From positions 1 to 64,000 of IMG/VR virus record IMGVR_UViG_3300049002_000006: 64,000 nucleotides of DNA, one strand, 5' to 3'. This document shows, piece by piece, positions 1-61,752 of this stretch. Every line of letters begins with the position of its first letter. Within the stretch, counting starts at the first letter, position 1. A program made the translations under genes and the position numbers. The notes beneath the pieces were generated by a model. The model was not told the DNA's origin. It worked only from the letters and a program-made list of their open reading frames with translations, and did not search any database. The DNA comes from a virus.

Positions 1-795
1 GTCGTGTTCGGTCATGATGACTTCGCCGGTTTCTTTGTCTCGACGGACGTAGAACATCTTGCCCCCCGTGTCTTTATCGACGACCACGCCCATCGCCGGT
101 CGTAGTTCTTTCGGCGGTCTAGGCATGACCCGCCCGCCCCGCCCTGGGATCTTCTTCGTGAACGTCGGTCTCGGACTTAGGAAGCCGAACACGCCGAGGG
201 ACTTCGACGCGATCCTGGTCTCGAATTCGGCGTCGGCGTCTACGTCGTGGACGTATTCTCGGCTGTCGTATTGGACGTTGTCTGCCCTGGCCCGATACGA
301 GTAGGCGGTCGATACGCCCGTCTTGGTCAGGCCGTCGAAGAAGTGCATGAGGTCGTCAGTCAGTCGGCATTGGACGATCAGATAGCCGGGGCACGTCTGG
401 ACGTTCTGCCGCCGGAACGAGCCGTCTTTCTGGAGGACGTTGTCGGGCATCTTCGGCACGATGATTCGGTCGATCTTGAGCCCGGCGGCCTTTGCTTTCT
501 TCAGGATCTGTTGCCGGATGGCCGCGTTGTTTCGGGTGTCTACTGCGAGGACGTAGAACGGATTTGTTCGGAGCATGACGAGTGCGTCTTTCGCTTGATA
601 GAGGACTGTTCGTGCCCCCTTCGGGACAGGAAGTTTCGCCAACGCCTCTTCGAGGATCTTGCTGGCCGTCGCCGATGCTGGTTGTCTTGTGATGGTCTGA
701 ATCGCTGCCGGCTTCGTCGTGTTTTGGGTCTTCGTTTTCTTCGGCAGTGCCGACAGGAAGTCGCCGAGGATTTTGCTGGCCGTCGCGTTCATCAT
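1..795 (-). CDS. NusG/RfaH-like antitermination factor (NGN domain with insertions), runs off window start
   Basis: Own translation, open from ATG 795 to position 1. FYVLAV..IRQQILKKAKAAGLKIDRIIVP...TCPGYLIVQCRLTDDLMHFF...LGVFGFL resembles NGN motifs (WYV, VVP, FPGYVLV, GVxGF). SD GAGAGGGG upstream. Confidence 0.7.
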   Translation of the reverse strand, partial: MMNATASKILGDFLSALPKKTKTQNTTKPAAIQTITRQPASATASKILEEALAKLPVPKGARTVLYQAKDALVMLRTNPFYVLAVDTRNNAAIRQQILKKAKAAGLKIDRIIVPKMPDNVLQKDGSFRRQNVQTCPGYLIVQCRLTDDLMHFFDGLTKTGVSTAYSYRARADNVQYDSREYVHDVDADAEFETRIASKSLGVFGFLSPRPTFTKKIPGRGGRVMPRPPKELRPAMGVVVDKDTGGKMFYVRRDKETGEVIMTEHD

Positions 796-873
796 GTCAA
801 GGCCCCTCTCTCGTCGGGCGAGTCTCAATCGTTGCCGGCCCGCACGGGCGCAAAAGCTAACGATATAGTGATG

Positions 874-902
874 ATTAAATCACATTGCCCGGCCCGGGGC
901 AA
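874..902 (-). promoter_or_regulatory. sigma70-type early promoter TTGCCC-17-TTTAAT
   Basis: 17-nt spacing with TG extension, upstream of the NusG-like gene. Confidence 0.55.
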
Positions 903-975
903 GAGGCGGGCCGGGCAATTTTTAGCTATTGCAAGAGGCGGGCCGGGCAATTTTTAGCTATTGCAAGAGGCGGGC
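899..975. repeat. 32-bp tandem duplication (about 2.4 copies)
   Basis: GCAAGAGGCGGGCCGGGCAATTTTTAGCTATT at 899 and 931, partial at 963. Confidence 0.95.
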
Positions 976-1173
976 TTTCATGTCCTGTATCACTAGCTCC
1001 TCGAGCAGTTTGAACCTTTCTCTTACAACTTTTAGATACTCGTCGTCCGTTTCCATGATGCCGGTGTCTTCCCACTTACAGATGACCGTCTGGAGTTCCT
1101 CCGCTATGAGTCGGGCTAGTGCGACCATATCACCGGCTTCTGTCCTTGGCGGGTACGACGGGTCATGGTCCAT
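958..1173 (-). CDS. hypothetical early protein
   Basis: ORF in tightly packed leftward cluster. Confidence 0.5.
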   Translation of the reverse strand: MDHDPSYPPRTEAGDMVALARLIAEELQTVICKWEDTGIMETDDEYLKVVRERFKLLEELVIQDMKARLLQ

Positions 1174-2503: not shown

Positions 2504-2818
2504 CTATTGAGGAATCGTGACTGTTAAGTATTTTCGGGCGAGATGACTCTTATAAGGGTATTTAGTGTATTTAATGCTCCTGGCAATGATCTCCGGGACG
2601 TTTTTTGTGATCGTAATGGCACAGCCCATGTCAGTGAGGAAATCGGACATGATGAGCAGTCTTTGCTCGTCTCGGTCGAACCATTTAATGACTAAGACGA
2701 GGCTTTTGTCTTTCTTGTACTGGACCCGATTGAACGTAGAATTATGGACGCCCCACTCGTTTTTTAGTAAGTGGATGACTCTTCGCTGGTTGGGGCTTCT
2801 TTTGTTCACGGCCGTCAC
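2504..2818 (-). CDS. hypothetical protein with IMSDFLTDxG motif (paralog of 7846-8232)
   Basis: Motif shared with two ORFs at 7.5-8.2 kb. Confidence 0.6.
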   Translation of the reverse strand: MTAVNKRSPNQRRVIHLLKNEWGVHNSTFNRVQYKKDKSLVLVIKWFDRDEQRLLIMSDFLTDMGCAITITKNVPEIIARSIKYTKYPYKSHLARKYLTVTIPQ

Positions 2819-3032
2819 TCGGAATAGGAACTATGGAGTAGGACCGGGCGAGGCGTTCGATCTGGTCTTCTTTGTGCCGGCATTCACCCCGGTAATGGAA
2901 GCCAGGACAGGAGCAGAAGACGTAGCCGGTCAGCTTGGACAGCGTTACCGTATGGACTTCACCGGGCTTGCTCTTGCTGTGGTATTTGGCGATGACTTTC
3001 ACGCCGAGCTTCGACGGCCTATCGGTCTGCAT
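2742..3032 (-). CDS. SWIM-type zinc-finger protein
   Basis: SKSKPGEVHTV...CSCPGFHYRGECRH (CxC..CxH). Confidence 0.7.
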   Translation of the reverse strand: MQTDRPSKLGVKVIAKYHSKSKPGEVHTVTLSKLTGYVFCSCPGFHYRGECRHKEDQIERLARSYSIVPIPSDGREQKKPQPAKSHPLTKKRVGRP

Positions 3033-3042
3033 AGCGCCCTCG

Positions 3043-3092
3043 CGTCTAGAATCGCGTTTAACGGCCGATCTATTGCCGGCTGTAGAAAATCA
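3043..3092. promoter_or_regulatory. conserved 50-bp intergenic element, copy 1
   Basis: 37/50 identical without gaps to 52591-52640; both precede leftward genes. Confidence 0.7.
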
Positions 3093-3181
3093 CGCCCCGG
3101 GCAAGATCGGCCCGCAAACGCCGTTTAATCGTGACTGGCGGGGCATTGTTCTCAGCCCCGCTAATTCAGGCCAGCTTTGTG

Positions 3182-3448
3182 CTACGCCCCGTGCTTCGGG
3201 ATAGGTAACCAGCCCTCTTTTTCGGTTTGGAGTTCGTGTCGCCGCTTGTTGCTCAGGTAGGCCGGTTTGCGAATACCGATGCACTTGTAGTGGACAGAAT
3301 CGTTTGTCGGCTGGTCGTAGATCACGCCGAAGGCCAGTTTGCAGGCTTCGCGAGGACCGGACGCCTTTTCACTGCGGAGGGCGATGATCTTGTCAGTCGG
3401 GACGTTGTTCTCGTCTCGGTCCAGGATTCGGATGTAGTAGTACGGCAC
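3182..3448 (-). CDS. hypothetical protein
   Basis: ORF in cluster. Confidence 0.6.
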   Translation of the reverse strand: MPYYYIRILDRDENNVPTDKIIALRSEKASGPREACKLAFGVIYDQPTNDSVHYKCIGIRKPAYLSNKRRHELQTEKEGWLPIPKHGA

Positions 3449-3451
3449 AGG

Positions 3452-3703
3452 TCATTCTTTCGTAAAGATGTCAGGGCGACAGTCTTCGGCGAATAGTTGA
3501 TCGAAGCAGGGCGAGCAGTAGCCGGAGATCAGGAGTTCTCGTTGTTCGGTTGTCAGATAGGGCATCGCCTTCTGGATGAGCATACCGTTTTGCCACTTGA
3601 CGTGGTCGATACTGCCCACTTTGAAAGGCGGTTGTTCTTCGCGGCACTTCGGGCAGCAGATGGTCAGAGTTAGTGGAACGCCGTTCATGGCTACTTGCCC
3701 CAC
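3452..3703 (-). CDS. zinc-ribbon protein
   Basis: CPKC...IQKAMPYLTxEQRELLISGYCSPC. Confidence 0.7.
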   Translation of the reverse strand: MGQVAMNGVPLTLTICCPKCREEQPPFKVGSIDHVKWQNGMLIQKAMPYLTTEQRELLISGYCSPCFDQLFAEDCRPDIFTKE

Positions 3704-4065
3704 ATTTCTAGGTCTCGGATTCGTTCGTCATGTTCGGCCCGGTCGAGTCGCGGCGTCTCTTCGAGGTCTCGTTCTTGGATGTCTTCCGGAGTATGGTCGG
3801 CGTAGTAGGCTTCGAGATCTTCGTCTGACATGCAGTCGAGGGTCTCTTTGTTCCGGATCGCCTCGTTGGCCCGGTCGTAGCTATTCGTGCCGTCATCGGT
3901 CGGACTGACATGGAGCCGGTCGATCAGCGCCTCGATAGCGGAAGCCTCGGGGTAGCCTTCGGCCGAGTGTAGATCGAAGACTTTGTGGAGTGCTTGAAGT
4001 ACGCTCTGTCGGTCTTCGTCAGTCAGAGTCGTGAGGAATAAATCGATTAATCGTTCGGCGGTCAT
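3691..4065 (-). CDS. acidic hypothetical early protein
   Basis: ATG 4065 with SD AAAGGGG, downstream of promoter. Confidence 0.65.
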   Translation of the reverse strand: MTAERLIDLFLTTLTDEDRQSVLQALHKVFDLHSAEGYPEASAIEALIDRLHVSPTDDGTNSYDRANEAIRNKETLDCMSDEDLEAYYADHTPEDIQERDLEETPRLDRAEHDERIRDLEMWGK

Positions 4066-4153
4066 CGTCAGGCCCCTTTCGAGTCTAGATCGGCCCCACG
4101 CCTCGCCAGAGAACAGCCCGGCAAGAGGCGTGAGAATTCGCCGATATCGAGAT

Positions 4154-4182
4154 ACTGTACTGTCGGCGGGCCGGCCTCGCAA
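4154..4182 (-). promoter_or_regulatory. early promoter TTGCGA-17-TACAGT
   Basis: Near-consensus hexamers, correct spacing. Confidence 0.55.
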
Positions 4183-4283
4183 CGTTATTCGCGCCTTTTT
4201 GTCGATGTTTTTTGGCCGCTTCCAGGAGCCCGTCCACTGATAATTACTGTTTCACTCGTTAGTATGATATGGCTTATACCTAC

Positions 4284-4311
4284 TTGACACGCCCACATCC
4301 TCTGTTATAAC
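4284..4311 (+). promoter_or_regulatory. promoter TTGACA-16-TATAAC for terminase genes
   Basis: Near-consensus sigma70, SD AGGAGG follows. Confidence 0.7.
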
Positions 4312-4340
4312 ATGCCCCCGCCCACTAAAAGGAGGAGGCA

Positions 4341-5138
4341 GTGTCGAAGACGAGAACCATAAAAGTCGCAGTCGTGTGGCAGGACGAGTTCTACCTGCGG
4401 GCCTATCAGTTAGCCCGCAGTGGGATGGGGAAAATGCAAATCGCCCGGGCGATCGGAGTCAGCTGGCCGACGTTCAAGAAGTGGCTGGACAGGAAGGAAG
4501 CTCTCAGGACCGCTATCAAGGACGGATCAGATCCCATCCACGAGGGCAAGCCGCAGCCCTTCCAAGACTACGTTTACGGCAACATGGACCCACACACGAA
4601 AGCAGTGTACGATAAGGTCCGGTCGTACATCGACCCGCAGACGGCTCCTAGGAATGCGGTAGTGATGCTGGAAGAGTTGATGCGGGACCAGGGCGACAAG
4701 ATGCGAAAGTCCTTATTTCTGCACTTCTACGCCAGTCACGGATTCAATCCGTCTGCCGCCTGCCACGCGGTTAATATCAAGAAGAAGACCCTAGAAAGGT
4801 GGTGCATCACCGATCAGGAGTTTTACGAGATGATGGAGGAGATGCGGTGGCATATGAAGAACTTCTGCCGGGGCCGGGCGATGGACTTGGTGGCCGCCGG
4901 GGACGCAAGTATGACCAAGTTCATGCTGAGTAATCTGGATGAGGACTTCAGGAAGACGCCGAGTACGACCAACATCAACATTCAAGGCCGGATCGAACAC
5001 GAGCATAACCTGGTGGATGTGGATAAGATTCCACTCAAGATCAGGATGCAGATGATGGACGCAATCGAGAACGAGCGAGACGGGGACGAAGACGAGATTC
5101 TGGACGCCGAATACGAGGTAAAGGCAGATGGAAATTAG
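4341..5138 (+). CDS. terS: terminase small subunit (HTH)
   Basis: N-terminal HTH (QIARAIGVSWPTFKKW), second HTH, GDASMTKFML, position before terL. Confidence 0.7.
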   Translation: MSKTRTIKVAVVWQDEFYLRAYQLARSGMGKMQIARAIGVSWPTFKKWLDRKEALRTAIKDGSDPIHEGKPQPFQDYVYGNMDPHTKAVYDKVRSYIDPQTAPRNAVVMLEELMRDQGDKMRKSLFLHFYASHGFNPSAACHAVNIKKKTLERWCITDQEFYEMMEEMRWHMKNFCRGRAMDLVAAGDASMTKFMLSNLDEDFRKTPSTTNINIQGRIEHEHNLVDVDKIPLKIRMQMMDAIENERDGDEDEILDAEYEVKADGN

Positions 5139-5168
5139 AGTGGTAGTAATCTACGAGGAGGGCGAGTC

Positions 5169-5459
5169 ATGAGTTTGGTGCGAATCGAAGCTGAATGGTT
5201 TAGAAAGGCGTTAGAGAAATCACAAGAACGGATGAAGGTACTTATAGCTCAGGAACTAAAGAAAGCAGGACTTAAGCTGATGGCTGAAGCAAAGGTGACG
5301 TACAACGAGGCTCAGCTACCTGGATCAGACTGGGTGGAGTTAGAAGGACAGTTGCCGATGACAGACGAAGGTAGAAAAATCTTGGAGGAGTGGTTAGACG
5401 AAACGTTGTCGAGCAGGAAGCAAGCCGACGAGCCGGTCATCGTGAAGGAGAAGGAATGA
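5169..5459 (+). CDS. hypothetical protein
   Basis: ORF between terS and terL, ATGA coupled. Confidence 0.55.
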   Translation: MSLVRIEAEWFRKALEKSQERMKVLIAQELKKAGLKLMAEAKVTYNEAQLPGSDWVELEGQLPMTDEGRKILEEWLDETLSSRKQADEPVIVKEKE

Positions 5460-6976
5460 ATAAGAAGATGGCCGTGGACCGGATTAAACTGATCCGTAGC
5501 ACCACGATGGAGAGCTACTCCCAATTCGTCAAATACTTCTGGCCGTGCGTCTCGGAGGAGAAACTGTGCTGGAACTGGCACATGGAGTATATGTGCAACG
5601 AGACGCAGAGAATCTACGAACGGGTGTTCAAAGGCTTGCCTAAGGAGTACGACGAGGTCACCAATATCAGTCCTGGGACTAGTAAGAGCACCGTAAAGAG
5701 TGTCATGCCCTGCGCGTGGGCATGGACTAGGATGCCCCACTTCAAGATGATCGGGGCATCCTACGCGGAAGAAGTAGCCATCGACCTGAGTATGAAGTGC
5801 CGAGGACTGGTCACACACGACCGCTTCCGAGAAATCTTTCCGGAAATCGTCTTACGAGACGATATGAACAGTAAAGGAAAGTTCGGTAATACGAAAGGTG
5901 GGTGGCGGCTGGCCGCAGGCGTCAAAGGCCGGATTATGGGTCATCATGCTCATGTGATAGTTGTGGACGACCCGCTTAGTCCAGAACAAGGTGAGTCTGA
6001 GTTAGACACGGCTACGGCCAATAGATGGATTAGTAAAACTCTTTCGACCAGAAAGATCGACAAGGCTGTCACACCAATGATCCTTGTGATGCAGAGGATT
6101 CACCATAACGACCCGACTGCTCTATTCCTCAAAAAGAAACGAGTCCGTCATACCTGCATCCCGGCCGAGATAATGGATGGCAAGATTATGGTTCATCCGG
6201 ACCACCTGCGAAAGCACTACGTAGATGGATTGATGGACCCGGTCCGGCTGAGTCGAGAAGTTTTGGATGATTACAAGGCCGAAGGAGACCGCTTCTATAG
6301 CACCCAATTCTTGCAAATGCCGGCCCCCGACGGCGGCGAGATGTTCAAGGTCGATCGGCTCATCAAGCTGACCGAGTACCCGAAGAAGTTCGACAAGCTC
6401 GTCAGGTTCTGGGACAAGGCCGGGACTAAAGGCGGCGGGGCGTACACGGTCGGAACACTCATGGGCATGGTCGAGGACAAACAAACCAGGAGTGCCCGAT
6501 ATTTTGTCCTCGACGTGGTCCGGCGGCAAGTCGATAGTTATTTCCGGGAGAAGTTGATTGAGGACACGGCCCACAGCGACGGCAGGAGTGTAATCGTCGG
6601 CGTCGAGCAGGAGCCGGGCTCAGGCGGGCTGGAGTCGGCACAGAATACGGTCGGCAGACTAGGTCCGCAACGGTTTGTGGTCAAAGTGAGTAAAGTGGAT
6701 GTGTCAACAGGCGGGAAGATCCAACGAGCCGACCCGTTCAGTTCTCAGGTAAACGGTGGGACAGTATACTACCTGCCCGATAAACCCTGGAACGATGCGT
6801 GGCTGGAAGAACTAGAGCATTTTCCGCACAGTCGTACCAAGGACCAGGTAGATAGTGCGTCCGGGGCTTTCGCCCTGTTGGCCAAGAAGAGGCGGCAGGT
6901 CGGCGGTGTCAGGATGAACAGGTCAAGGGTGTCGAGTTTCGCGGCCCGGGTAGTGCCTCAGTACGCCCCCGCGTAA
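5456..6976 (+). CDS. terL: terminase large subunit
   Basis: WNWH, Walker A-like SPGTSKS, Walker B VIVVDDP, MQR, nuclease RFWDKA...EQEPGSGG...DQVD. Confidence 0.95.
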   Translation: MNKKMAVDRIKLIRSTTMESYSQFVKYFWPCVSEEKLCWNWHMEYMCNETQRIYERVFKGLPKEYDEVTNISPGTSKSTVKSVMPCAWAWTRMPHFKMIGASYAEEVAIDLSMKCRGLVTHDRFREIFPEIVLRDDMNSKGKFGNTKGGWRLAAGVKGRIMGHHAHVIVVDDPLSPEQGESELDTATANRWISKTLSTRKIDKAVTPMILVMQRIHHNDPTALFLKKKRVRHTCIPAEIMDGKIMVHPDHLRKHYVDGLMDPVRLSREVLDDYKAEGDRFYSTQFLQMPAPDGGEMFKVDRLIKLTEYPKKFDKLVRFWDKAGTKGGGAYTVGTLMGMVEDKQTRSARYFVLDVVRRQVDSYFREKLIEDTAHSDGRSVIVGVEQEPGSGGLESAQNTVGRLGPQRFVVKVSKVDVSTGGKIQRADPFSSQVNGGTVYYLPDKPWNDAWLEELEHFPHSRTKDQVDSASGAFALLAKKRRQVGGVRMNRSRVSSFAARVVPQYAPA

Positions 6977-6990
6977 TTCGCCTTTTTCTC

Positions 6991-7019
6991 TTGCATGCCC
7001 CATATCATGCCGATAAGCT
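6991..7019 (+). promoter_or_regulatory. early promoter TTGCAT-17-TAAGCT
   Basis: Spacing and position before 7093 gene, in GGW-free window. Confidence 0.55.
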
Positions 7020-7092
7020 ATCTCTATGTCGTTGTCGGCCGACTGCCTCATCACTTCGGGGCGGGCCGACAACGAAAAAGAAGGGGCCGAAC

Positions 7093-7299
7093 ATGCAAGC
7101 GCAAGCGCCGAAGTGTCAGAAGTGCGGGGCGAATCTGATATATGTGACCGACTTCGCGGCCCCAGGCTGTGGTCAAGCCTGGCGGTGCTCCGATCAGTCG
7201 TGTGCCCGGCCGCACGTCAAGATCGGCTCGACTGTCATCGACCTGTCCGAGCATGAAGATCCGACCGAATACGAGTACGACATGGCCGACGTGATGTGA
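7093..7299 (+). CDS. small zinc-ribbon protein with own promoter and terminator
   Basis: CQKC...CSDQSC; SD AAGGGG. Confidence 0.65.
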   Translation: MQAQAPKCQKCGANLIYVTDFAAPGCGQAWRCSDQSCARPHVKIGSTVIDLSEHEDPTEYEYDMADVM

Positions 7300-7307
7300 T
7301 CCTCATT

Positions 7308-7333
7308 GCCCCGTCCGAAAGGCGGGGCTTTTT
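7308..7333 (+). terminator. intrinsic terminator
   Basis: GCCCCGTCC GAAA GGCGGGGC TTTTT. Confidence 0.8.
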
Positions 7334-7531
7334 AACCTACTCTCATAATGGTTTAGACCATGAGTCAAAGGAAACTGGAAAAGCGCAGGGCGAAAGAAAT
7401 AGAGAAACAAAGACAGGACACGCTCGCGTACCGGCGGGCCAAGCTGCAAAAGTGTTCTACAGCCCTACGGCTGGAGGATATCGCCGGAGAGCGAGTTTAC
7501 GAACGAGGAAACACAGGTCACGACTATCCGC

Positions 7532-7834
7532 GTGCATCAGGATTGGGCGAATAAAGGACTAGCGATCTATCAACAACGTGGACTAGAACTAGGTTTGTTG
7601 AAATGGACTAAAACAACGAATATCTCGACCAGGAAAATGGAAAAGATATTAATAATGGGGGGAGATGGATTGGATATAACTGTTCTCGAAAAGTTAGGGG
7701 AGTTGGCAAACAGTATAAGGAAGGAAGTATTTATGCCCCACGAAATGGTCTATGACTTGTTGACGGACAACGGTTTCGAGGCTGGTGTATCCAGACAGTA
7801 TAAGGAAGTGGTTATATTCGATGTGGTCTTATAG
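7532..7834 (+). CDS. hypothetical protein (DLLTDNGF motif)
   Basis: Motif shared with downstream ORF. Confidence 0.55.
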   Translation: MHQDWANKGLAIYQQRGLELGLLKWTKTTNISTRKMEKILIMGGDGLDITVLEKLGELANSIRKEVFMPHEMVYDLLTDNGFEAGVSRQYKEVVIFDVVL

Positions 7835-7845
7835 GAGCCGGAATA

Positions 7846-8232
7846 ATGAAACTAACTAAAGACCAGTTGAAAATATTCCGATTAAACAAGGCTAGACTGA
7901 AAGGTCTCGTCGCTCAGTATGGTTGGGTAATCAGGCAAGGGGCCGTAGGAATTAAGAAAAACGGAACACGAACCGTCATTATCGAGGTGGACTGGGAAAA
8001 CATCGCCCAAGAACTGTATGAAAACGAAATAGATAGATATAGTGATTACTTCAGTAATAGTCATGTTCTGGTCAGTCAAGCGCGGCAAAAGACAATGAAC
8101 GAATTGTACATGAGGTCACCGATCATGTCGGACTTTTTAACGGATAACGGATTTGAACACCAAGTACAAAAGAAGTCCGAATATATAGATGATAACCATC
8201 AACCAATATCCGTGGAAGTACCGCACGAATAG
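7846..8232 (+). CDS. hypothetical protein (IMSDFLTDNGF motif)
   Basis: SD AGGAG; paralog motif. Confidence 0.65.
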   Translation: MKLTKDQLKIFRLNKARLKGLVAQYGWVIRQGAVGIKKNGTRTVIIEVDWENIAQELYENEIDRYSDYFSNSHVLVSQARQKTMNELYMRSPIMSDFLTDNGFEHQVQKKSEYIDDNHQPISVEVPHE

Positions 8233-8258
8233 GACTCAAGGACTTAGGAAGAAACCAA

Positions 8259-8615
8259 ATGAAAAAGAACTTCGGATGCCTGGACTGCAAAAGCGACAGA
8301 TTCGCAATGGTCATACTGAAGGAAGAGGTTTGGCTATCAATAGCTGACAAGCACGATTTCCTTTGTCCTGTTTGTATAGAAGTCCGTCTTAAAAGGAAGC
8401 TTACCTGGAATGACTTAAAAGGGTGTGTAGTTAACCTGGACGCTTTAATGGGGATTCACTACTTAATCACTTCCAGTCCACAAGAAATCCTTACTATGTT
8501 CCAGGAATATCAAGCTCTGATGAGTTTGGAAGCCCCTCTCCTCTCGCAAAAGTCAGAAGGATTAAAGGAAAAGCCTCGAAACGCCTCGAAACGCAAAGAA
8601 ATCAACAAAAAGTGA
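8259..8615 (+). CDS. zinc-finger phage protein
   Basis: CLDC...EVWLSI...LCPVCIEVRLKRKLTWND. Confidence 0.7.
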   Translation: MKKNFGCLDCKSDRFAMVILKEEVWLSIADKHDFLCPVCIEVRLKRKLTWNDLKGCVVNLDALMGIHYLITSSPQEILTMFQEYQALMSLEAPLLSQKSEGLKEKPRNASKRKEINKK

Positions 8616-9514
8616 AAAGGAGGAGGTTTCGCCGAATTAGTAGAATAGAACACTAAATATGTTCTCCAGATGTATACTCAATATTAACAATTAGTGGTAT
8701 AACATATCAAAAACGCCGTACCCAAGTCCAACCACTAATTATTTACAGGTAACGGTAGCACAATTCCAGAGACAGGCTACCTCATTACCAATTAATTCAG
8801 CCGGCTCACTCACTTCTGGCCCAAAACAAGTCTTCAAATCCCCTGGACAATCGTTATTAACCGCCCTTTTCCTGCGATATCTCCTGGCCAGAGCACAATC
8901 TCACGCCCTAGGCATAATAACTCAGGAAACCATCGGTTAATGCATTTCCTTTCAAATACCCCTCAGGTTCAATCAAGGACGCACACTTTCCTGCTAACAG
9001 AAGGTCAATAGGACTAATGGTTGAGTGGATGTGTTACCAATAGACCAATCACACACTCCTTCCAGGTAGCTCCTGTGATATGACTGGAAGAGATTCTTAG
9101 GTCGGGCTAGAGAGTCCAGCTACCAGTCTGCGTTCACGGTTAACAGGATATACGGTTTAGGAATTCGAGGCCGATAGGTAGCATTTGGAAGAGGTTAAGG
9201 TGCCAACGGACCAGGAGGGTTCAGCGCTGGTCGAGGTAATAAGGACTTACGGTCGAGCACTTCTTGGAGGTATTTCCATAGGTCTAACCAGGTGGGTTCA
9301 ACCGAGGTTAGACCTATTCGGACTACAGGTAGTATAGGTTTAAGTAGATTAGGACTAGCGGTTTTACCGGTGGTTAAGGGTTCAACAGACCCGGAGGGTT
9401 CATTTGGTCAACAGGTAATAGGTTAACGGTCGCGGTTGATCGGACTAAAGGACTAGCGGTTTCGATAGGTTTGGAGGTTGGTCAAGGGGTTTAAGTGGTT
9501 CAGGAGGAGGTGGA
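8616..9514. other. non-coding region with polar GGW-dense tracts
   Basis: No credible ORF. WCC-rich at about 8700-9060, about 52 GGW on + at 9061-9514, repeated AGGACTA/GGTT words. Confidence 0.75.
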
Positions 9515-9566
9515 AGCAGAAAAGCGCAAAAAAGAGAAGGGCGAGAAATCGCCGTGAGTGTGAACG

Positions 9567-9597
9567 AAAAGAGCCCCGGGCGAAGTGCCCGGGGCTC
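9567..9597 (-). terminator. intrinsic terminator of island gene
   Basis: GAGCCCCGGGC ACTTC GCCCGGGGCTC TTTT on minus strand. Confidence 0.9.
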
Positions 9598-9611
9598 ACG
9601 ATATCGAGATG

Positions 9612-10142
9612 CTACGCCGTCGCCACTTCGGGCACTTTCTTGCCCTTCGCCTTGCCCTTCGGGGCTTCGGCGGCCGGCTTCGTTTCGCTCTCGGCCGCGA
9701 TTAGTTGAGAGACGATTTGCACAATCGGCCCCGCCAGTGAGTAGCCGATGGCCGTTTTGCTCACGCGGCCGTTTCGCGTCATCGTGCCGTTGTGCGGGCC
9801 AGTCGGGCGATTCGGGCCGTACTCGACACTGCCGATGCTTGCGGCCATGTCACGATCACGCACGCCAGTCAGCTTGTCGGCCGCTTCGCCGTTCGCCAGC
9901 TGAGCGCACAAAGCGCTCAGCCACACTTTGAACATGGCGTGTGTGCCAGTGCCCGCCCGCGTGCCGTAGCTGGCGAGTAGCGTGCCCTGATCGCATAGGG
10001 CGTCGTACACGCGGCGGGCCGGCGTGTTCTCGGCGGGCAGGGCGATCATAGTGCCCGGCTGACTGCTACGCCCCGGCCGCACGGGCAGGGCCGCGAGGGC
10101 AGTAGCCAGCATCTCATTCGTCGTCGTGTTCAGCTTCGTCAT
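9612..10142 (-). CDS. isolated immediate-early-like protein (176 aa) in GGW-free island
   Basis: ATG 10142, SD ACAGGGG, own promoter and terminator; Lys/Ala-rich tail. Confidence 0.8.
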   Translation of the reverse strand: MTKLNTTTNEMLATALAALPVRPGRSSQPGTMIALPAENTPARRVYDALCDQGTLLASYGTRAGTGTHAMFKVWLSALCAQLANGEAADKLTGVRDRDMAASIGSVEYGPNRPTGPHNGTMTRNGRVSKTAIGYSLAGPIVQIVSQLIAAESETKPAAEAPKGKAKGKKVPEVATA

Positions 10143-10256
10143 GTCATAGCCCCTGTCTTGTAAGTACGTCATTGTCTGCATTGTGTCGCTCGCCCGCACA
10201 CGCACGTTGCGCGGCAGACGCGAGCCGAGATGTCAGAGAGCGTACTAGACAGAGTG

Positions 10257-10285
10257 ATTAAAGGGGCCGACTAGTCTGTTGTCAA
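10257..10285 (-). promoter_or_regulatory. strong promoter TTGACA-17-TTTAAT
   Basis: Consensus -35, 5/6 -10, 17-nt spacer. Confidence 0.85.
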
Positions 10286-10307
10286 CGATATCGAGTGATT
10301 TTATCAT
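10279..10307 (+). promoter_or_regulatory. overlapping divergent promoter TTGTCA-17-TATCAT
   Basis: Both hexamers 5/6; overlaps the -35 of the leftward promoter. Confidence 0.5.
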
Positions 10308-10485
10308 CACTATTTCGAGCAATTGTTCACTAGCAGTGGTAGCGAATGTCGTGCCATACCCTCATGGTTCAATAGGACTAACGTGATTACTGCCGACAGG
10401 GGGTAATAGAGGAGGATTGGAGGACTCCCCTACTTCGTGGATGAATCTGGAGGAGGGGCATTGGCAGTGAATGGGCAACCCATCC

Positions 10486-10591
10486 CTATCGATTTTTTTA
10501 TTTTTTACCCGGTATCGATTTCTAAATTTTCGCCCGGTATTTTTTAACTACGGTTTTTATCTCCTGGTATCGATTTTTTATTTTTTTAGGT
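10486..10591. repeat. T-tract repeats (GGTATCGATTTTTTA)
   Basis: TATCGATTT at about 10488, 10513 and 10568, plus CCCGGTAT x2. Confidence 0.8.
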
Positions 10592-10606
10592 AATTTTAGA
10601 AATACC

Positions 10607-10635
10607 TTGCCGTCCAGAAAACTATCGAGTATGCT
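10607..10635 (+). promoter_or_regulatory. late-operon promoter TTGCCG-17-TATGCT with 9-bp inverted repeat over -10
   Basis: Spacing; CGAGTATGC..GCATACTCG. Confidence 0.55.
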
Positions 10636-10697
10636 ACCCGCATACTCGCAGGAAACTCATCAGACCAAATTACCTGAATTCGCCCTAGGAGAACACC

Positions 10698-11102
10698 ATG
10701 AGTGGTAAGCTGCCTGACCTGGCAAACCCCTACAAAACGCGGGCGTTCGACTACGTCGGCACGACCATCGGGGCGGAAGCCACGAACGTTATCACCGTGG
10801 CCTGCCAGCTGCAAACGAGCGACCGGCGGGACATCGCCGAGCGGGCCATGATCGAATGGTTCATCAGTGACGACGCGGCCGGCGACAGCCTGGTAGCCAC
10901 AGCCCCGGACGGCGGCGTGGCCGCCGGGGCGGACGGTTGGCTCAGCCAACTCGTTACCGGAAAACTCGGGGTCGCCGTGTGCGAGGCCGACGGGGATTTG
11001 GACATCGCCATCACCCACGCGGCCGGGGCGAAGACCGTTTACCTGGGGTTCCGGATGCCGGACGGGACTATCCGGATGTCGGCCGCTATCACCTTCGCCT
11101 AA
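10698..11102 (+). CDS. putative virion structural protein
   Basis: A/G/T/D-rich beta composition, SD AGGAG. Confidence 0.6.
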   Translation: MSGKLPDLANPYKTRAFDYVGTTIGAEATNVITVACQLQTSDRRDIAERAMIEWFISDDAAGDSLVATAPDGGVAAGADGWLSQLVTGKLGVAVCEADGDLDIAITHAAGAKTVYLGFRMPDGTIRMSAAITFA

Positions 11103-11115
11103 CGGAGCAACTTCC

Positions 11116-11487
11116 GTGCCGCAGGACCACAGAGGACTCGTATTGGGTCCTGGTTCGGTAAGAGACGAGATTCTGGAAGAAAACCGAAAGCGATTTGAGG
11201 GCGAACTCCTCAAGGCAATGAAGAAAAGGTCTGTCATGCACTACCGGAACGGACGGGAAGCGAAAAACGGGGACAAGATCGTGTCCCTCGGTAGGAGCTT
11301 CCTCATCGAAGCAGTAGGAGTTTTGTTCGACGCGACTTCGGAAGGAGGTAACCACTGCAACGGGCAGATCGCCCCGGTCAGAGGAGGTCCGGTGTCTCAC
11401 GCCTGCCTCTGTGACTGCCTACACGTGGAAGACCTGTACGCGATTCTGAAAGAGAAGGGCCTCCACAAGCGTCCGGACGGAAAGTAA
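11116..11487 (+). CDS. hypothetical protein (probable start 11236, MHYRNGREAKNGD)
   Basis: Small conserved-looking protein. Confidence 0.55.
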   Translation: MPQDHRGLVLGPGSVRDEILEENRKRFEGELLKAMKKRSVMHYRNGREAKNGDKIVSLGRSFLIEAVGVLFDATSEGGNHCNGQIAPVRGGPVSHACLCDCLHVEDLYAILKEKGLHKRPDGK

Positions 11488-11503
11488 TAAAGGAGCAACT
11501 TCG

Positions 11504-11686
11504 ATGTGGGCCGTCGTGTTCGTCGTCCTGATGATTCTGATCCCAGTGCTGTACTTCGTCCTGAGGGAACCGCCTGGTCGGAACGTGATGGTAGCGGTCA
11601 TCCTGCTATGGGTGTGCGTGGCGATCCTCGGACTATACATGTTCGGGGGGTTTTGGGAACCTAGGGCGGCAGTCCTGGTAAGGTGA
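11504..11686 (+). CDS. small 2-TM membrane protein
   Basis: Two hydrophobic stretches, SD AGGAG. Confidence 0.6.
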   Translation: MWAVVFVVLMILIPVLYFVLREPPGRNVMVAVILLWVCVAILGLYMFGGFWEPRAAVLVR

Positions 11687-11687
11687 T

Positions 11688-12059
11688 ATGACAACCAACG
11701 ACCTGATTTACGGTGAAGACAGTTTACCAGTCCTGGTCTTCACCGGGTACACGGAGTTTCTGGTAGGGGGCAAAGACAGGTCGTCTCAGTGGACTAAGGT
11801 TCGGGACGAATACATCAAGGCCAACCCGGACTGCGAATGCTGCACTAGGAAGGCCGAAACCGTTCACCACAAAAGACCGTATCACCTGTTTCCGGATCTC
11901 GAGCTCGACAAGTCGAACCTGATGAGCGTTTGCGACCACTGCCACCTGGTGTTACTACACGCCGGTGACTTTAGGTTGTGGATGGACATGCCCGATCTGG
12001 AAGCCGCCCGGCACCGGAACATCGTCAAACTCGCCAAGAAAAGGTCGGTGAAACTATGA
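11688..12059 (+). CDS. HNH endonuclease
   Basis: CECC..VHHKRP..NLMSVCDHCH. Confidence 0.85.
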   Translation: MTTNDLIYGEDSLPVLVFTGYTEFLVGGKDRSSQWTKVRDEYIKANPDCECCTRKAETVHHKRPYHLFPDLELDKSNLMSVCDHCHLVLLHAGDFRLWMDMPDLEAARHRNIVKLAKKRSVKL

Positions 12060-27150: not shown

Positions 27151-27732
27151 ATGCGCTCGTTGTTCGTCGTTCTGGTGTTCGTTTTGCCCCTCGCCGCAGA
27201 CGACAGCCCGTGGGACTTTTCGAGGCGTGTGGACGACATAGAAAAGAAGCAGAAAGAGTTTGACCGTAAGTTAACGGATCTGAACTCGAAGGTCGATGCC
27301 ACAATGGTGTTGATCGACCAGATCAAAGCGAAGTTCGCCGAACCGATGAAAGTCGCTTCGCCTACCGAGACGGAAATCATTCCGGTCCCGAAGACCACTC
27401 TCCCTCCTGGTGTAGGAGGCGGGTGGGTGCCGATGTCGGATGGTACTTACGAGCGGACGATTAAAGTGAAGTACAATCCGGTAATGCCGACTTCGGTCAT
27501 GATCTATGGAACTCCTGTAGTCGAACCAGCCGTGCCGGTGTATGCTCAGTCTACTCCCGTTTATACTCAACCGTATGTCGGTACTTATCAGACCATTGGA
27601 GGGTACACCGTCAGTCCTTCTTGGTACGGGAGTGTGGGGGCCGACGGCGGCGGGACGTGTGTAGGCGGGGATTGCGGAAACACAACCATCAACTACGGGC
27701 GGCCCGGCTTGTTCGGCCGGTACCGGAGGTAA
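27151..27732 (+). CDS. exported protein with CxGGxC / RPGLFG tail
   Basis: Signal peptide, coiled coil, PVY repeats. Confidence 0.65.
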   Translation: MRSLFVVLVFVLPLAADDSPWDFSRRVDDIEKKQKEFDRKLTDLNSKVDATMVLIDQIKAKFAEPMKVASPTETEIIPVPKTTLPPGVGGGWVPMSDGTYERTIKVKYNPVMPTSVMIYGTPVVEPAVPVYAQSTPVYTQPYVGTYQTIGGYTVSPSWYGSVGADGGGTCVGGDCGNTTINYGRPGLFGRYRR

Positions 27733-27733
27733 C

Positions 27734-28060
27734 ATGACGACCAAGCAACTGTGTGCCAAGCTGAACGACCGGATGGAATCTGTCCCGGCAGAAGTGTGGG
27801 GGGCGATCCTTGCGGCCGTCATGAAACTGATTCAAGGGTGTAAGGACACTCCTCAAGAAGCCCTCGACTACGTCCGCGAAGCACGAGGTAACTTGCGTCA
27901 CCGGGTAGTCGTGGCGGCGATGTTTCGGCGGGCGTGGGTGAATCAAGGACTCCCTCGCCGGAAAATGGATGACGGACTAGAAGCCCTCCTCGAAGAGGCG
28001 GACTTCGTTGATGTTAAGGACGTCAAGCGCATGTTTAAGGAGGCGGCATATGAGTCCTGA
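27734..28060 (+). CDS. hypothetical protein
   Basis: ORF with SD. Confidence 0.6.
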   Translation: MTTKQLCAKLNDRMESVPAEVWGAILAAVMKLIQGCKDTPQEALDYVREARGNLRHRVVVAAMFRRAWVNQGLPRRKMDDGLEALLEEADFVDVKDVKRMFKEAAYES

Positions 28061-36666: not shown

Positions 36667-39502
36667 AGGAGTTTCGGAAGCCTTAGAACGGATGAGTCAG
36701 GTCGCGGCTCGGGCCGCCGCCGTTAACACGGAACTAGGAGCCGCCGCCCAATCGGCAATGGACCGAGTCAGGTCGTCAACCGTCGGGGCAATGGCAGCAG
36801 CGTCCGCCAGTATGAGTTCGACCGCCGGCCACGCCAAGATGCTCGAGGATGCTTTACGGCAACTCGGGGCGACTGCGGACGCCACGATGGCCAAGGTTCG
36901 GGTTGCCGCTCCAGGAATCCATTATCAGTCTACGTCTACCGGAACAGGCGGTGGGGTAGTCGGTGCTCCTGGTGTTCGGTTTCCTTCGATGCCTGCGTCC
37001 GGTGGTGGGGGCGTTGCCCCTCCGGGGCTTCGATTTCCGACGGTCATGTCGGACCCTGGTCGAGGCCCGGCTATAGGGGCACCGGGCCTCAGGTGGCCGA
37101 TTCAGGAACAGCAACGGATAGTCGGGGCTCCGGGACTTCGTTGGTCTAATCAAGAACAGCCGGCCGCTTCCGAACCTTGGCGATGGAATTGGGGGGCGGC
37201 GGCCGGCGGCGGGTTCTTCGGCCGGGCGATTGGCGGAATGCCCGGCGGGATTGGCGGGGCACTAGGTGGTGGTATCTTTGGCGTCCCGGGGGCCGTCGGT
37301 GGGGCGTTGGGTGGGGCCGGACTAGATTGGCTGGTCGTCAAGCCGTTATCCATAGCAGCGGATTTGGCTTCGACGGCACTCCATAAGCTGGCCGAAGGTG
37401 TTCATTTCCTGGTCGAGAAAGTCTTCACGCTCGGTATCGAATTCGAGAAGACTAGGACTGAATTCAGCATCATGGCCGGGTCCCCTGAGAAGGGGTTGAA
37501 TCTTCTCGGCCGCATCCAAGAACTTGCCGTCAAGTCGCCATACACGACCAGAGAGTTGGCCCCGACTGGTCGGATGCTCTTGAGCATGGGCGTCGATCCG
37601 GAGGATGTTCCGTCCGTCTTGAGTCGCATCGGTGACGTGGCCGGCGGAAGTCGAGACCGGCTTAACCGGCTGACGTTGGCCTACGGCCAAGTGGTTGCGG
37701 CCGGTCGGTTTCGGGCCACCGAGCTTCGCCAGTTCACGGAAGCCGGTGTCGGTGTTTCGGATTTCGCCAGGGCGGCCGGAGTTAGTCCTCGCCGCCTGCG
37801 GGAGATGATGGAAGGCGGCGAGGCCGGGGCCGACATCGTTGGTCGGACGTTCAACCAAATCACCGGTCCGGGTGGCCGATTCTTCAACATGTCGGCCGGC
37901 GTTAACCGGACCGTCGGCGGGCAGTTGAACACTCTACAGGAGTCACTGGAGATCGCCGGGCAGAAGGCCGGGGTGAGCGCCTTCGCCAGGTATGACGTGT
38001 CCGGTCGTATTGACCGGCTGACCGCGAGCATTGAGGATATTATCAAGGCGGCCGAGAAGGGCGGACCGGCCCTGGACGAAGTAGTCAAGATGCTCGATTC
38101 TGTTTATGAGGGCGTCCAGAAATCTATCGGTAGCTCTAATTTGACCTGGGAAAGTCTGACTAGCACTTTGGCAGACTTCGGTAAGAACGATCTTCCGGGG
38201 TTGATAACCGGAATCATTGAACTGTCCGGGGCGTTCATGGAACTGACAGCCTTCTCCTTGAGGGCCGCGCGGGAGATCGCAGCCGTCGTCCTTGCCGTTC
38301 CGGATACTGTGTCCTGGGCGTATCACGGATTCAATTCCAACACGACCGGAACATATCAGAAGTCCAGGGAAGCATTTGTCAATTCGACTACTGCACTAGC
38401 GGACGCCGCAAGCCGTGGCGGTGGTTTCCTGCTGGACAGAGGACAAGGCGTTGGAGATCGGGTCGCTACGGCTTACGCCCTCGGCGGGATGCGAGGGGCC
38501 GGGCTACCGGAACCGGAACCCGGCCAGATGGTCAACGGTCGTTGGCTACCACACAGCACTGTAACGCTGGCCGGCGGTCGTACAGTATCGGCACTGTCTC
38601 CGGAAGGTAGGGCGGCGTTGCTGTCCGCCGGCATTCCTATTACCTATGGGTACTCTGCCGGCGGGCAACAGCAACTCACCAGGGCGTTACAACCTTTTGG
38701 TGTCGCGGGAGGACAAGTTCCTTTCTTGCAAAACTTCTTCGGGGCCTTCGGAGCAGTCCCTCGTCAAGGATTTGTTTCACCTAACATTCCGATAGCCCCT
38801 AACGCACCGAGATGGAGTGGAGAAGACCAGCAGCTGATTGACGCCATGAAGAAGAAGTTCCTAGAACGTGATCCGGTAACGACGCTCCTGAATCAATTCT
38901 CTCTGGCCAGCAGGTTGCAGAATCCCTTAGTTGCAAGGAACTTTAACCAACTTCTATTCGGCGAAGGATTTGTTCCGGGCATCAACCAGCAGCAAGGGAA
39001 CTTCGCCAGGGAACAGGCGATGACGGAATTCAAAAAGGATATGGGAATTCCTGTCAGTCCGTGGGAACAGTTCCAAAAATCAATGGATCAGATTAACACT
39101 GGGATAGGGGCAGATTTCACCAGTAGGTTTGCTCAAGGCTTCGGCGGCGGGATGGCCGGTACCGGCCTGACGACGGCGATGGCAGCGGCCCGCGCGGCGG
39201 CCGGGGCGCAAGGCGGGCCGCTACAGAACGCCCTCAGGATGGCTCGGGTCGGAGCCTTCGACAAGCTAACTCAGGTGCGGCCGTGGGACAGTTTACCTAC
39301 GGCCATGCAACTCGGATCGAGTCAGGCCCAGGAGACGATCAATCGGAGCATGATGATGCAGCAAGTAGGGGGCGGTGTCCAGGATCGAATAGACGAAGCC
39401 CTCCAGGAGCATAAGGAAATGCAACAGAAACAATTGAAAAAACTGGAAGACATCGAGAAAGCAATCAAGGACAGACCAGGCGTCGAAGTGGTAGGAGGGT
39501 AA
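36503..39502 (+). CDS. tape measure protein
   Basis: 999 aa A/G-rich, tape_meas motif (IGDVAGG..LAYGQV..ELRQF). Confidence 0.9.
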   Translation: MATFDKLIQELEAKTDKFEQGYAVAERSVKAFGAAVEKAMTRLAADEAKAEAATKGVSEALERMSQVAARAAAVNTELGAAAQSAMDRVRSSTVGAMAAASASMSSTAGHAKMLEDALRQLGATADATMAKVRVAAPGIHYQSTSTGTGGGVVGAPGVRFPSMPASGGGGVAPPGLRFPTVMSDPGRGPAIGAPGLRWPIQEQQRIVGAPGLRWSNQEQPAASEPWRWNWGAAAGGGFFGRAIGGMPGGIGGALGGGIFGVPGAVGGALGGAGLDWLVVKPLSIAADLASTALHKLAEGVHFLVEKVFTLGIEFEKTRTEFSIMAGSPEKGLNLLGRIQELAVKSPYTTRELAPTGRMLLSMGVDPEDVPSVLSRIGDVAGGSRDRLNRLTLAYGQVVAAGRFRATELRQFTEAGVGVSDFARAAGVSPRRLREMMEGGEAGADIVGRTFNQITGPGGRFFNMSAGVNRTVGGQLNTLQESLEIAGQKAGVSAFARYDVSGRIDRLTASIEDIIKAAEKGGPALDEVVKMLDSVYEGVQKSIGSSNLTWESLTSTLADFGKNDLPGLITGIIELSGAFMELTAFSLRAAREIAAVVLAVPDTVSWAYHGFNSNTTGTYQKSREAFVNSTTALADAASRGGGFLLDRGQGVGDRVATAYALGGMRGAGLPEPEPGQMVNGRWLPHSTVTLAGGRTVSALSPEGRAALLSAGIPITYGYSAGGQQQLTRALQPFGVAGGQVPFLQNFFGAFGAVPRQGFVSPNIPIAPNAPRWSGEDQQLIDAMKKKFLERDPVTTLLNQFSLASRLQNPLVARNFNQLLFGEGFVPGINQQQGNFAREQAMTEFKKDMGIPVSPWEQFQKSMDQINTGIGADFTSRFAQGFGGGMAGTGLTTAMAAARAAAGAQGGPLQNALRMARVGAFDKLTQVRPWDSLPTAMQLGSSQAQETINRSMMMQQVGGGVQDRIDEALQEHKEMQQKQLKKLEDIEKAIKDRPGVEVVGG

Positions 39503-42600: not shown

Positions 42601-43157
42601 ACCTTAATCACGTTTCCGACGTGCAGCCAATCGTCATCAGAGACCACGATCAACTGCACGTCCATTTCTTCTGCTAGTTGTACCAGGAGCCCGGCAACTC
42701 TTTCCTGGTATTCGGACCCATTTACGTTCTTGAACGGTTCGTCCAAAATTAGCAGTCTCCTCTTCTTCGGACGGAGCATCATCAGGCAGGCGAGCCGCAA
42801 CCCGAAAGCGGCGACCTCGATCTGCCCGCCGGCTTTCTCCTCCGTCAAATCCGTGTACTCCTCCCCGTCCGCCGTGAACACGAATACGGCTTCCGTCTTC
42901 CCTCGCTTCTGTTCGAACCGAATCTTAAAGCCGTAGGCGTCTTCCCCGAAGACCGCTTTCAGGCATTTCGTCACGACGGCGACCAGTTGCTTGTGGACTA
43001 CTTCTTGTGTCGCCACGGCAATTGACTGGAGGAGCTTCTGCGCCGAGATGCTGTTCCTGTGTTTGGCCGTCGCCACCTTGACGGCGATATTCTCCTTCGA
43101 CCTTTCGTGTGCGGCCAGCAGGTAATCATGCTTGACACTAGTCGCGTACCGGATCAG
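42597..43157 (-). CDS. SbcC/Rad50 C-terminal half, probable CTG start
   Basis: Signature-like AGGQ, Walker B LLILDEPF, QLIVVS. Confidence 0.8.
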   Translation of the reverse strand: MIRYATSVKHDYLLAAHERSKENIAVKVATAKHRNSISAQKLLQSIAVATQEVVHKQLVAVVTKCLKAVFGEDAYGFKIRFEQKRGKTEAVFVFTADGEEYTDLTEEKAGGQIEVAAFGLRLACLMMLRPKKRRLLILDEPFKNVNGSEYQERVAGLLVQLAEEMDVQLIVVSDDDWLHVGNVIKV

Positions 43158-52590: not shown

Positions 52591-52640
52591 CGTCTAGAAC
52601 GGCTTTAAACGGCCGATCATACGTCGGCCGGGCAAAATCA
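52591..52640. promoter_or_regulatory. conserved 50-bp intergenic element, copy 2
   Basis: 37/50 identity to 3043-3092. Confidence 0.7.
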
Positions 52641-59945: not shown

Positions 59946-60133
59946 TGTTCCTTGCTAGGCGGGCCGTCGTACAGACAAATATTTCCGGAATCTTTCCATT
60001 GTTTAACTATTCGGTCGAAGTCTTTTTCGCAGTCGGCGAACGCCCGAAGGCTGATCTGCCCTCTGGCGAGGAAGGCACCGTCTACGAACACGACGATTCG
60101 CTTGACGGTACCTATTGTGATCGGAACTTCCAT
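59942..60133 (-). CDS. hypothetical protein
   Basis: Coupled ORF. Confidence 0.5.
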   Translation of the reverse strand: MEVPITIGTVKRIVVFVDGAFLARGQISLRAFADCEKDFDRIVKQWKDSGNICLYDGPPSKEQ

Positions 60134-61510: not shown

Positions 61511-61752
61511 GTTTTCGTGATTTCTTTAAAGTGATTCGTTCTGAGCCAGTACACGAAGTCCTCAAATAGTGTCATCAGCTTTGGATCTTTGAAACAGAAG
61601 CTCGCAAGCTCTCGCATTGTCTCAGTAGGTCCGCCGTCATGCTTCCATGGAAAATCGTAATCGACGGTTAGACCAAAGTCTAAAATCATCTGGTTCGACT
61701 TGTTCATATGGGCGATTAATGCCTCGAATTTTTCGTTTTTTGGTCGGCTCAT
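61507..61752 (-). CDS. hypothetical protein
   Basis: ATGA coupled. Confidence 0.55.
   Translation of the reverse strand: MSRPKNEKFEALIAHMNKSNQMILDFGLTVDYDFPWKHDGGPTETMRELASFCFKDPKLMTLFEDFVYWLRTNHFKEITKT

Follow-up and report, generated by a model that had tools for sequence, protein, structure and literature searches.

Five stretches in the genome of the uncultured soil phage IMGVR_UViG_3300049002_000006 contain neither of the trinucleotides GGA and GGT (together GGW) nor their complements (WCC), and each of them covers the control region and the start of one gene. The IMG/VR record of this phage comprises 82,146 bp (55% GC, 127-bp terminal repeat, rated complete). The window under study is its first 64 kb, and the five stretches, termed islands W1 to W5 in the following, all lie within it (Table 1). 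Of the listed sequencing runs, a single one contains the phage, probably that of the source sample and stored as contigs, and none of RNA does. The same genome encodes a DpdA-like guanine transglycosylase. We consider it probable, at about 0.55, that GGW is the target of this enzyme, or the core of that target, and that the islands represent control DNA exempt from the mark, a reading derived from the sequence.

According to this reading, the DpdA-like enzyme would exchange guanine for a 7-deazaguanine derivative, with GGW as the modified motif, after replication. Five transcription units would keep their control regions free of GGW, from the upstream DNA over the promoter or operator, the leader and the DNA of the ribosome-binding site to the first codons. 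The islands would stay ordinary DNA within a marked genome, including the incoming DNA. Modification within these regions would disturb the initiation of transcription or the binding of regulators, and proteins reading the major groove or opening the helix could work unhindered in the islands, be it the host RNA polymerase holoenzyme or regulators of the phage or the host acting on inverted repeats. The units served would be early ones.

GGW-free islands in the phage genome

An earlier note on this DNA had described W1 to W4 as windows free of GGW and WCC on both strands. This proved accurate, with GGA, GGT, TCC and ACC all at zero. The flanking GGW/WCC sites are 215 (W1), 175 (W2), 161 (W3) and 198 bp (W4) apart. 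The note had also proposed a listing of GGW-free windows, and when all gaps of at least 150 bp were listed genome-wide, these four and a fifth of 826 bp (9512–10338, containing W5) were returned and no others, the sixth-largest gap in the 82,146 bp measuring 120 bp. GGW/WCC sites total 5941 in the genome, or one per 13.8 bp. In third-order Markov simulations the biggest gap was 155 bp (n = 30) and, in a further set, 165 bp (n = 40). The 161-bp gap of W3 is close to these simulated maxima and is hence borderline when taken alone, but the five gaps together cannot be attributed to chance. When the windows were shuffled using their own letters, none of 2000 mononucleotide and none of 500 dinucleotide shuffles of each reached zero sites. 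The composition of the windows is ordinary (55–61% GC). W1 holds an exact 32-bp tandem duplication (GCAAGAGGCGGGCCGGGCAATTTTTAGCTATT) at 899–962.

The five islands together span 1560 bp, in which 65.6 occurrences of GGA/TCC and 49.4 of GGT/ACC are expected and none is found. No other trinucleotide is nearly so depleted there, and GGC and GGG are enriched. An unbiased scan of 1271 strand-symmetric IUPAC motifs of two to four letters ranked GGW first with a score of 51, followed by its own sub-motif GGA (27.5); TA-containing motifs frequently head such scans for unrelated reasons. Since the motif is gone from both strands while other trinucleotides are kept, the constraint works on double-stranded DNA. 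The gene lying within W5 has no GGW/WCC site compared with 37.3 ± 4.5 across 5000 synonymous recodings, which shows selection on DNA rather than protein. The coding parts of the small windows are too short to be informative in this respect (1.2 and 0.5 sites expected).

Position of the islands relative to genes

Every island stretches from upstream DNA over the leader and the ribosome-binding site to the start codon or first codons of one gene. In the five genes served by the islands, the nearest GGW/WCC upstream of the start codon is 141–195 nt away, compared with 27 nt or less in the remaining 123 of the 128 called genes. As to the general layout, leftward genes run from 4065 to 1 and continue across the record ends into a leftward block (82146 to 42600) that contains the genes for replication and for guanine modification, and a rightward block from 4341 to about 42600 carries terS, terL and the virion genes.

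A general scarcity of GGW in intergenic DNA was considered and rejected, as the region 8616–9611 holds 96 sites versus 72 expected. Most of this region (8616–9511) is a stretch of about 900 bp without a called gene that abuts W5, has 31–53% GC per 100 bp and carries repeats such as AGGACTAGCGGTTT. Plus-strand WCC dominates at 8700–8900 and GGW dominates from about 9100 to 9511, with 9–14 per 100 bp. The left flank of W5 is GGW-dense (12–16 sites per 100 bp versus a mean of 7.2). Between W5 and the first virion gene, the AT-rich segment 10487–10588 (28% GC) carries three TATCGATTTTTT-type repeats and resembles an origin or a group of repeats to which proteins bind.

Shine-Dalgarno sequences of the island genes

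The earlier note had contrasted GGGG-type Shine-Dalgarno sequences at the windows with AGGAG in most late genes, and counts over the 128 genes agree with it. At positions −20 to −4, GGA or GGT is present in 113 genes. All 42 late-block genes are among them, 15 with AGGAG and 24 with GGAG. Neither GGA nor GGT is found there in the five island genes, which use GAGAGGGG, GAGGG, AAAGGGG, AAGGGG and, at the W5 gene, CAGGGG. This is not a signal independent of the islands, because GGAG is impossible without GGA. In the proposed mechanism, an A of the Shine-Dalgarno sequence would have been swapped for G, with wobble pairing to the 16S tail being kept.

No known riboswitch or RNA family accounts for the leaders, given that a tRNA scan and an Rfam scan across the window found nothing. 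The leader of the W4 gene contains a very stable hairpin or inverted repeat that ends directly before the Shine-Dalgarno sequence (Table 1).

DpdA and the guanine-modification genes

The DpdA-like protein aligns with the DpdA of phage iggy at 34% identity over 188 aa (E 4e-28). By tblastn it matched 190 phage records, none of which reached 60% identity; in many of them the annotation is queuine tRNA-ribosyltransferase or DpdA. The protein had no match in Pfam or NCBIfam, and none among PDB sequences, where a DpdA profile also found nothing. Its AlphaFold2 model has a mean predicted local distance difference test score (pLDDT) of 89.1. Among the 50 listed Foldseek hits of this model, 49 were tRNA-guanine transglycosylases (TGTs), including the top 45, at E values of 4.5e-3 or weaker. 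VIA-align gave Z scores of 13.0–13.6 to TGTs and of 13.1 to the DNA preQ0 insertase DpdA (7ui4; root-mean-square deviation 4.2 Å over 227 residues). The TGT/DpdA fold of the protein is confirmed as far as the predicted model goes.

Genes for the preQ0 precursor pathway are located at genome positions 64351–67007, beyond the window, and encode FolE (2.8e-65), a QueD-like (6.2e-33) and a QueE-like protein (phrog_2076, 1.9e-47). If one guanine were exchanged per GGW site, about 13% of the guanines would be marked, as calculated from the site counts. Adjoining the DpdA-like gene is an open reading frame (ORF) of 392 aa (62692–63870) with weak glycosyltransferase matches (GT4, 1.1e-4, below threshold), the product of which could add another modification to the base or to the DNA.

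Comparison with known systems

In phage iggy, nearly all GA sites carry dPreQ0, amounting to about 16.5% of guanines (PMC10484667), and GA and GGC are reported as the DpdA motifs of phage CAjan (PMC7544227). The present phage resembles both in having a DpdA homologue near FolE, QueD and QueE and a short motif starting with G, and its implied share of marked guanines is of the same order as the share given for iggy. It differs from both in that the inferred motif, GGW, is reported as a primary motif in neither paper, although GGT and GGTT are named there as possible secondary motifs for known DpdA systems (PMC10484667, PMC7544227). Its DpdA is also only 30–34% identical to characterised enzymes.

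The iggy genome (MN029011.1) itself has gaps free of its own motif. Its GA/TC-free gaps of 171, 161, 157 and 152 bp compare with a maximum of 117 bp in 60 simulations, and the locally expected counts in these gaps (14.6–18.1) are the highest of ten dinucleotide classes. Two of the gaps listed in Table 1 are intergenic at least in part, one of them heading a leftward arm, and three lie within annotated small or low-complexity genes. The searched passages of the iggy and CAjan papers make no mention of promoters, transcription or motif-free regions; the word 'intergenic' has no occurrence in those on iggy.

Templates containing 7-vinyl-, 7-ethynyl- or 7-phenyl-7-deazaguanine are nearly lost to transcription by the E. 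coli and B. subtilis polymerases in vitro, probably at initiation, while plain 7-deazaguanine is tolerated (PMC4838386). A block of initiation by 7-substituted 7-deazaguanine would provide a physical reason for unmodified promoters. That work concerns switching with synthetic substituents at every G, and the parts available to us describe neither a natural phage nor a motif-free island. Full-text literature searches, and term searches within the iggy and CAjan papers, turned up no description of motif-free islands.

Phage genomes are known to avoid restriction sites, selection stripping a short word from both strands. The loss of a short word from both strands is shared with the islands. Here, however, the word is present at normal frequency genome-wide, only a few control regions lack it, and it would be a modification target of the phage itself rather than a cutting site of the host. 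Another analogy is provided by animal promoters, where unmethylated CpG islands escape a genome-wide base mark. Control regions are exempted in both cases, but CpG islands retain the dinucleotide and are shielded from the enzyme, whereas in the phage the word is deleted.

Islands in related phages

Searches for related loci with single proteins revealed no close relatives: TerL found only matches of 26–30% identity in viral contigs and none in metagenome contigs, and DpdA found none in viral contigs. A near-identity search with positions 5000–12000 against phage records gave no match. DpdA homologues at E ≤ 1e-10 numbered 735, mostly metagenomic. An alignment of 33 homologues led to 73 IMG/VR loci, and 13 whole records (G001–G010, G012–G014) were compared.

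The three relatives with the closest TerL (G001, G002 and G003; 52–57% identical) differ in GC content (50, 44 and 64%, respectively), and all have GGW-free islands. In G001 there are adjacent gaps of 463, 373 and 314 bp, and others of 192, 189 and 180 bp; G002 has gaps of 795 and 192 bp and G003 adjacent ones of 382, 149 and 112 bp. Five of these gaps in G001, one in G002 and two in G003 exceed the largest of 40 simulations made for each genome. GGW ranked first among 565 motifs in G002, fifth in G001 and twelfth in G003. A large island is located between terL and the homologue of the gene at 10698 in all four genomes, the studied phage included, and the ORFs inside these large islands show no tblastn similarity to each other. 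The island-headed genes of G001 have GGW-free ribosome-binding sites such as GAGGGCGC. The GGW-dense flank of W5 was not found in the relatives. No PHROG family matched the island genes of the studied phage, G001 or G002, and the W5 protein has a single relative on record, 67% identical, on a 2.4-kb contig.

A larger case is G013, a 91-kb phage with a different backbone, no TerL match and a DpdA 37% identical to the one studied here. It carries an island of 2493 bp in which only 2 GG/CC are found versus 230 expected. This island is joined across the record ends (88760–91004 plus 1–279) and contains two or more ORFs together with repeat arrays of the GCATGCGCAC type. Whole genes are likewise found in the largest islands of G001 (3–4 ORFs) and G002 (one).

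Apparent islands for other motifs in the loci of two relatives, L013 (11144–11607) and L057 (1493–3200), were rejected because they are tandem repeats. The arrays lie beside DpdA, consist of 33-bp units or GGTCTC-type hexamers, and mimic islands in a naive scan.

Promoter matches and further elements in the islands

The earlier note had ascribed a sigma70-like promoter to three of the four windows W1 to W4. This was not confirmed: a consensus scan found none in the four, and a position weight matrix (PWM) rose above chance in W1 only. The PWM scores were 11.0 (W1), 7.6 (W3), 6.6 (W4) and 4.1 (W2), for a consensus that may not be that of the host. With this heuristic matrix, the 95th percentile of random segments (9.6) was exceeded only by W5 (15.4) and W1. 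Among the 128 genes, those of the islands took ranks 1, 5, 30, 48 and 96 by their best upstream match. Two matches of 10/12 were returned by the consensus scan, one in W5 and one upstream of terS (Table 1). The label of early sigma-70 promoters is hence not established for these windows. W5, the largest island, encloses a whole gene and a promoter-like site facing the structural genes. The only hint of early timing is location, namely that the small-gene arm starts here and that a gene for a candidate phage sigma factor lies downstream.

Several sequence elements recur in the islands. A 23-nt element, GTGATTT[A/T]ATCATCACTAT..TCG, is found at 861–883 in W1 and inverted at 10295–10317 in W5, the two being 91% complementary. 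GATATCGAG has three copies inside islands out of five in the genome, where 0.5 are expected. CTCTTGC has five island copies (three in W1 and one each in W3 and W4), all in gene orientation, out of 16 in the genome, and the corresponding island of G001 carries a similar word.

A second class of control elements is defined by the conserved motif GATCGGCC-N11-TTCTAG/TTTAAT/TTTAAC/GATAAT, all 10 copies of which are intergenic. Outward-facing pairs of GATCGGCC, 42 bp apart, lie at genome positions 3070/3105 (within W2), 67044/67079, 73531/73566 and 75281/75316, and single copies at 52618 and 64266; a motif site is also listed at 4088–4095. All of these elements are in GGW-poor gaps of 57–175 bp. 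The motif may represent a phage-specific class of promoters or operators. A candidate small sigma factor is encoded at genome positions 79023–79529 (weak matches to phrog_351, 2.6e-7, and to Pfam Sigma70_r2, 0.0039, below threshold), for which G001 and G002 have homologues of 30% identity and G004 a match of 22%. The GATCGGCC elements may be its promoters.

Weighing of the interpretation

The earlier note had concluded that promoter and initial-transcribed DNA must stay unmodified. The part of this claim that concerns control DNA being kept free of modification is well supported by the avoidance on both strands, the short G-centred motif, the DpdA and preQ0 genes, the position of the islands, the relatives, the GA islands of iggy and the polymerase block in vitro; the part invoking early sigma-70 promoters is not established, as described above.

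A number of observations weigh against our interpretation. Nine relatives with a DpdA of the same clade (G004–G010, G012 and G014; 36–50% identical) show no GGW island: no gap in G004 or G005 exceeds those simulated for the genome concerned, and the remaining seven, of which G006 and G010 are only 65–66% complete, have no GGW gap with a locally expected count above about 10. Similarly, CAjan is without a GA-free island, its largest gap being 81 bp. The DpdA tree of 14 genomes does not split island genomes from island-free ones. Since it is poorly resolved (7 of 11 inner branches open; G000, G001 and G003 grouped at 92/88, G002 unplaced, G013 together with the island-free G014), it provides no test of a link between DpdA clade and islands. 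In the pathway, no QueC was recognised, and an ORF of 283 aa between FolE and QueE matches nothing. As to transcription, every guanine was replaced in the in vitro work, including those of the −35 element (PMC4838386), which would not be the case in this phage. The PWM matches in W3 and W4 are within chance, and the strongest sigma-70 consensus match, upstream of terS, lies outside the islands and is not GGW-free, with TCC in its spacer. Finally, several GATCGGCC elements tolerate GGA in the ribosome-binding sites that follow them, and one has ACC between its arms.

GGW might also be modified with the islands serving to keep the genes or gene starts needed first readable under host defences that attack modified DNA, such as a nuclease or a glycosylase, and not to meet a need of the polymerase. 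The complete genes with their own signals in the largest islands (W5, G001, G002, G013) would fit this, as would a preprint on antiviral DNA glycosylases that reportedly target modified phage bases. However, the four small windows consist of control DNA and a few codons only, GGW abounds in the genes served by them, the coding DNA of which would not be spared, and no anti-defence family matches any island gene. We regard this explanation as unlikely.

Slightly less likely still is that GGW is avoided independently of DpdA, in order to keep off a phage or host protein that reads unmodified GGW. Such a reader might be a DNA-binding protein that coats the genome, a nuclease or nickase with frequent cutting sites, or a further modification enzyme, for instance the GT4-like neighbour. 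There is no direct tie between DpdA and GGW, the 392-aa protein with its Pfam matches below threshold stands beside DpdA, and the island-free relatives possess a similar DpdA. We know of no GGW reader of such a kind. In iggy, moreover, the motif missing from the islands is the measured DpdA motif, which favours DpdA. All island genomes encode a DpdA homologue, a weak argument, since all genomes examined do so.

It is improbable that the islands serve another function at the DNA level requiring unmodified DNA, such as a replication origin, a packaging site or a recombination site. W5 does lie between the non-coding stretch 8616–9511 and the TATCGATTTTTT repeats, and W3 adjoins terS. However, five separate islands, each ending at a start codon with a ribosome-binding site, are more in keeping with gene control than with one origin or pac site. 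Chance, local composition or repeats do not explain the five islands as a set, according to the tests made: a 161-bp gap can be reached in one simulation set, tandem repeats produced false islands in the loci of two relatives and W1 has its duplication, but no shuffle reached zero sites, GGW headed the motif scan, island GC is ordinary, the islands are otherwise not built of repeats, and the pattern is kept across genomes of 44–64% GC.

If the preferred reading, control DNA exempted from a DpdA mark at GGW, is true, a new DpdA specificity is predicted, and a hypermodifying phage would have to exempt its own control DNA, which bears on the transcription of modified genomes at entry. A wider proposal, which we hold more tentatively, is that phages hypermodifying guanine by DpdA commonly write control regions and some whole genes without their own target word, making unmodified islands a regulatory layer. 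The motif might then be readable from the sequence, being GGW in this clade, GG in G013 and GA in iggy, and the target motifs of uncharacterised DpdA enzymes could be predicted from sequence alone.

Feature coordinates

Table 1. Islands, island genes and associated elements. Positions refer to the window, except in the last row (iggy, MN029011.1).
Feature	Position	Strand	Remarks
W1, GGW/WCC-free	771–982		Entire intergenic region upstream of gene 247–795 and its first 8–9 codons
W2, GGW/WCC-free	3027–3198		Upstream of gene 2742–3032
W3, GGW/WCC-free	4063–4220		Head of leftward gene arm, divergent region opposite terS
W4, GGW/WCC-free	6952–7146		Last codons of terL, intergenic region, first 18 codons of gene 7093–7299
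W5, GGW/WCC-free	9515–10337		Contains whole gene and divergent promoter-like sites
W1 gene	247–795	−	182 aa, without family match; GGW-free over the 187 nt before the start codon
W2 gene	2742–3032	−	96 aa, without family match; GGW-free over the 166 nt before the start codon; weak G001 relative (35% identity)
W3 gene	3691–4065	−	124 aa, without family match; GGW-free over the 155 nt before the start codon
W4 gene	7093–7299	+	68 aa, cysteine-rich, without family match; GGW-free over the 141 nt before the start codon
W5 gene	9612–10142	−	176 aa from this ATG, 189 aa with start at 10181
Shine-Dalgarno GAGAGGGG	803–810	−	Gene 247–795
Shine-Dalgarno GAGGG	3037–3041	−	Gene 2742–3032
Shine-Dalgarno AAAGGGG	4073–4079	−	Gene 3691–4065
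Shine-Dalgarno AAGGGG	7081–7086	+	Gene 7093–7299
W1 candidate promoter	874–902	−	TTGCCC, 17 nt, TTTAAT; PWM 11.0; overlaps 23-nt element common to W5
W3 candidate promoter	4154–4182	−	TTGCGA, 17 nt, TACAGT; PWM 7.6, within chance
W4 promoter proposed in the earlier note	6991–7019	+	TTGCAT, 17 nt, TAAGCT; PWM 6.6, within chance
W5 promoter-like site	10279–10307	+	TTGTCA, 17 nt, TATCAT; 10/12; faces structural gene block
Best sigma-70 consensus match of the region	4284–4313	+	TTGACA, TAACAT; 10/12; upstream of terS, just outside W3
Divergent pair GATCGGCC-N11-TTCTAG/TTTAAT	3063–3112		Inside W2, arms 42 bp apart
W4 leader hairpin/inverted repeat	7029–7075	+	Ends directly before Shine-Dalgarno; −36.8 kcal/mol, z = −4.59, 0/200 shuffles as stable
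DpdA-like guanine transglycosylase	61749–62690	−	phrog_887, 2.7e-39; 34% identical to iggy DpdA
iggy GA/TC-free gaps, 108–171 bp	60074–60225, 3179–3286, 27694–27854, 39300–39456, 42700–42870

Genome-wide rarity of GCGC

A further word, GCGC, is rare throughout the genome of the studied phage (62 versus 183 expected, observed-to-expected ratio 0.34). Its relative G001 has no such avoidance (276 versus 295 expected). Yet the five islands, 1560 bp in all, contain 9 of the 62 copies.

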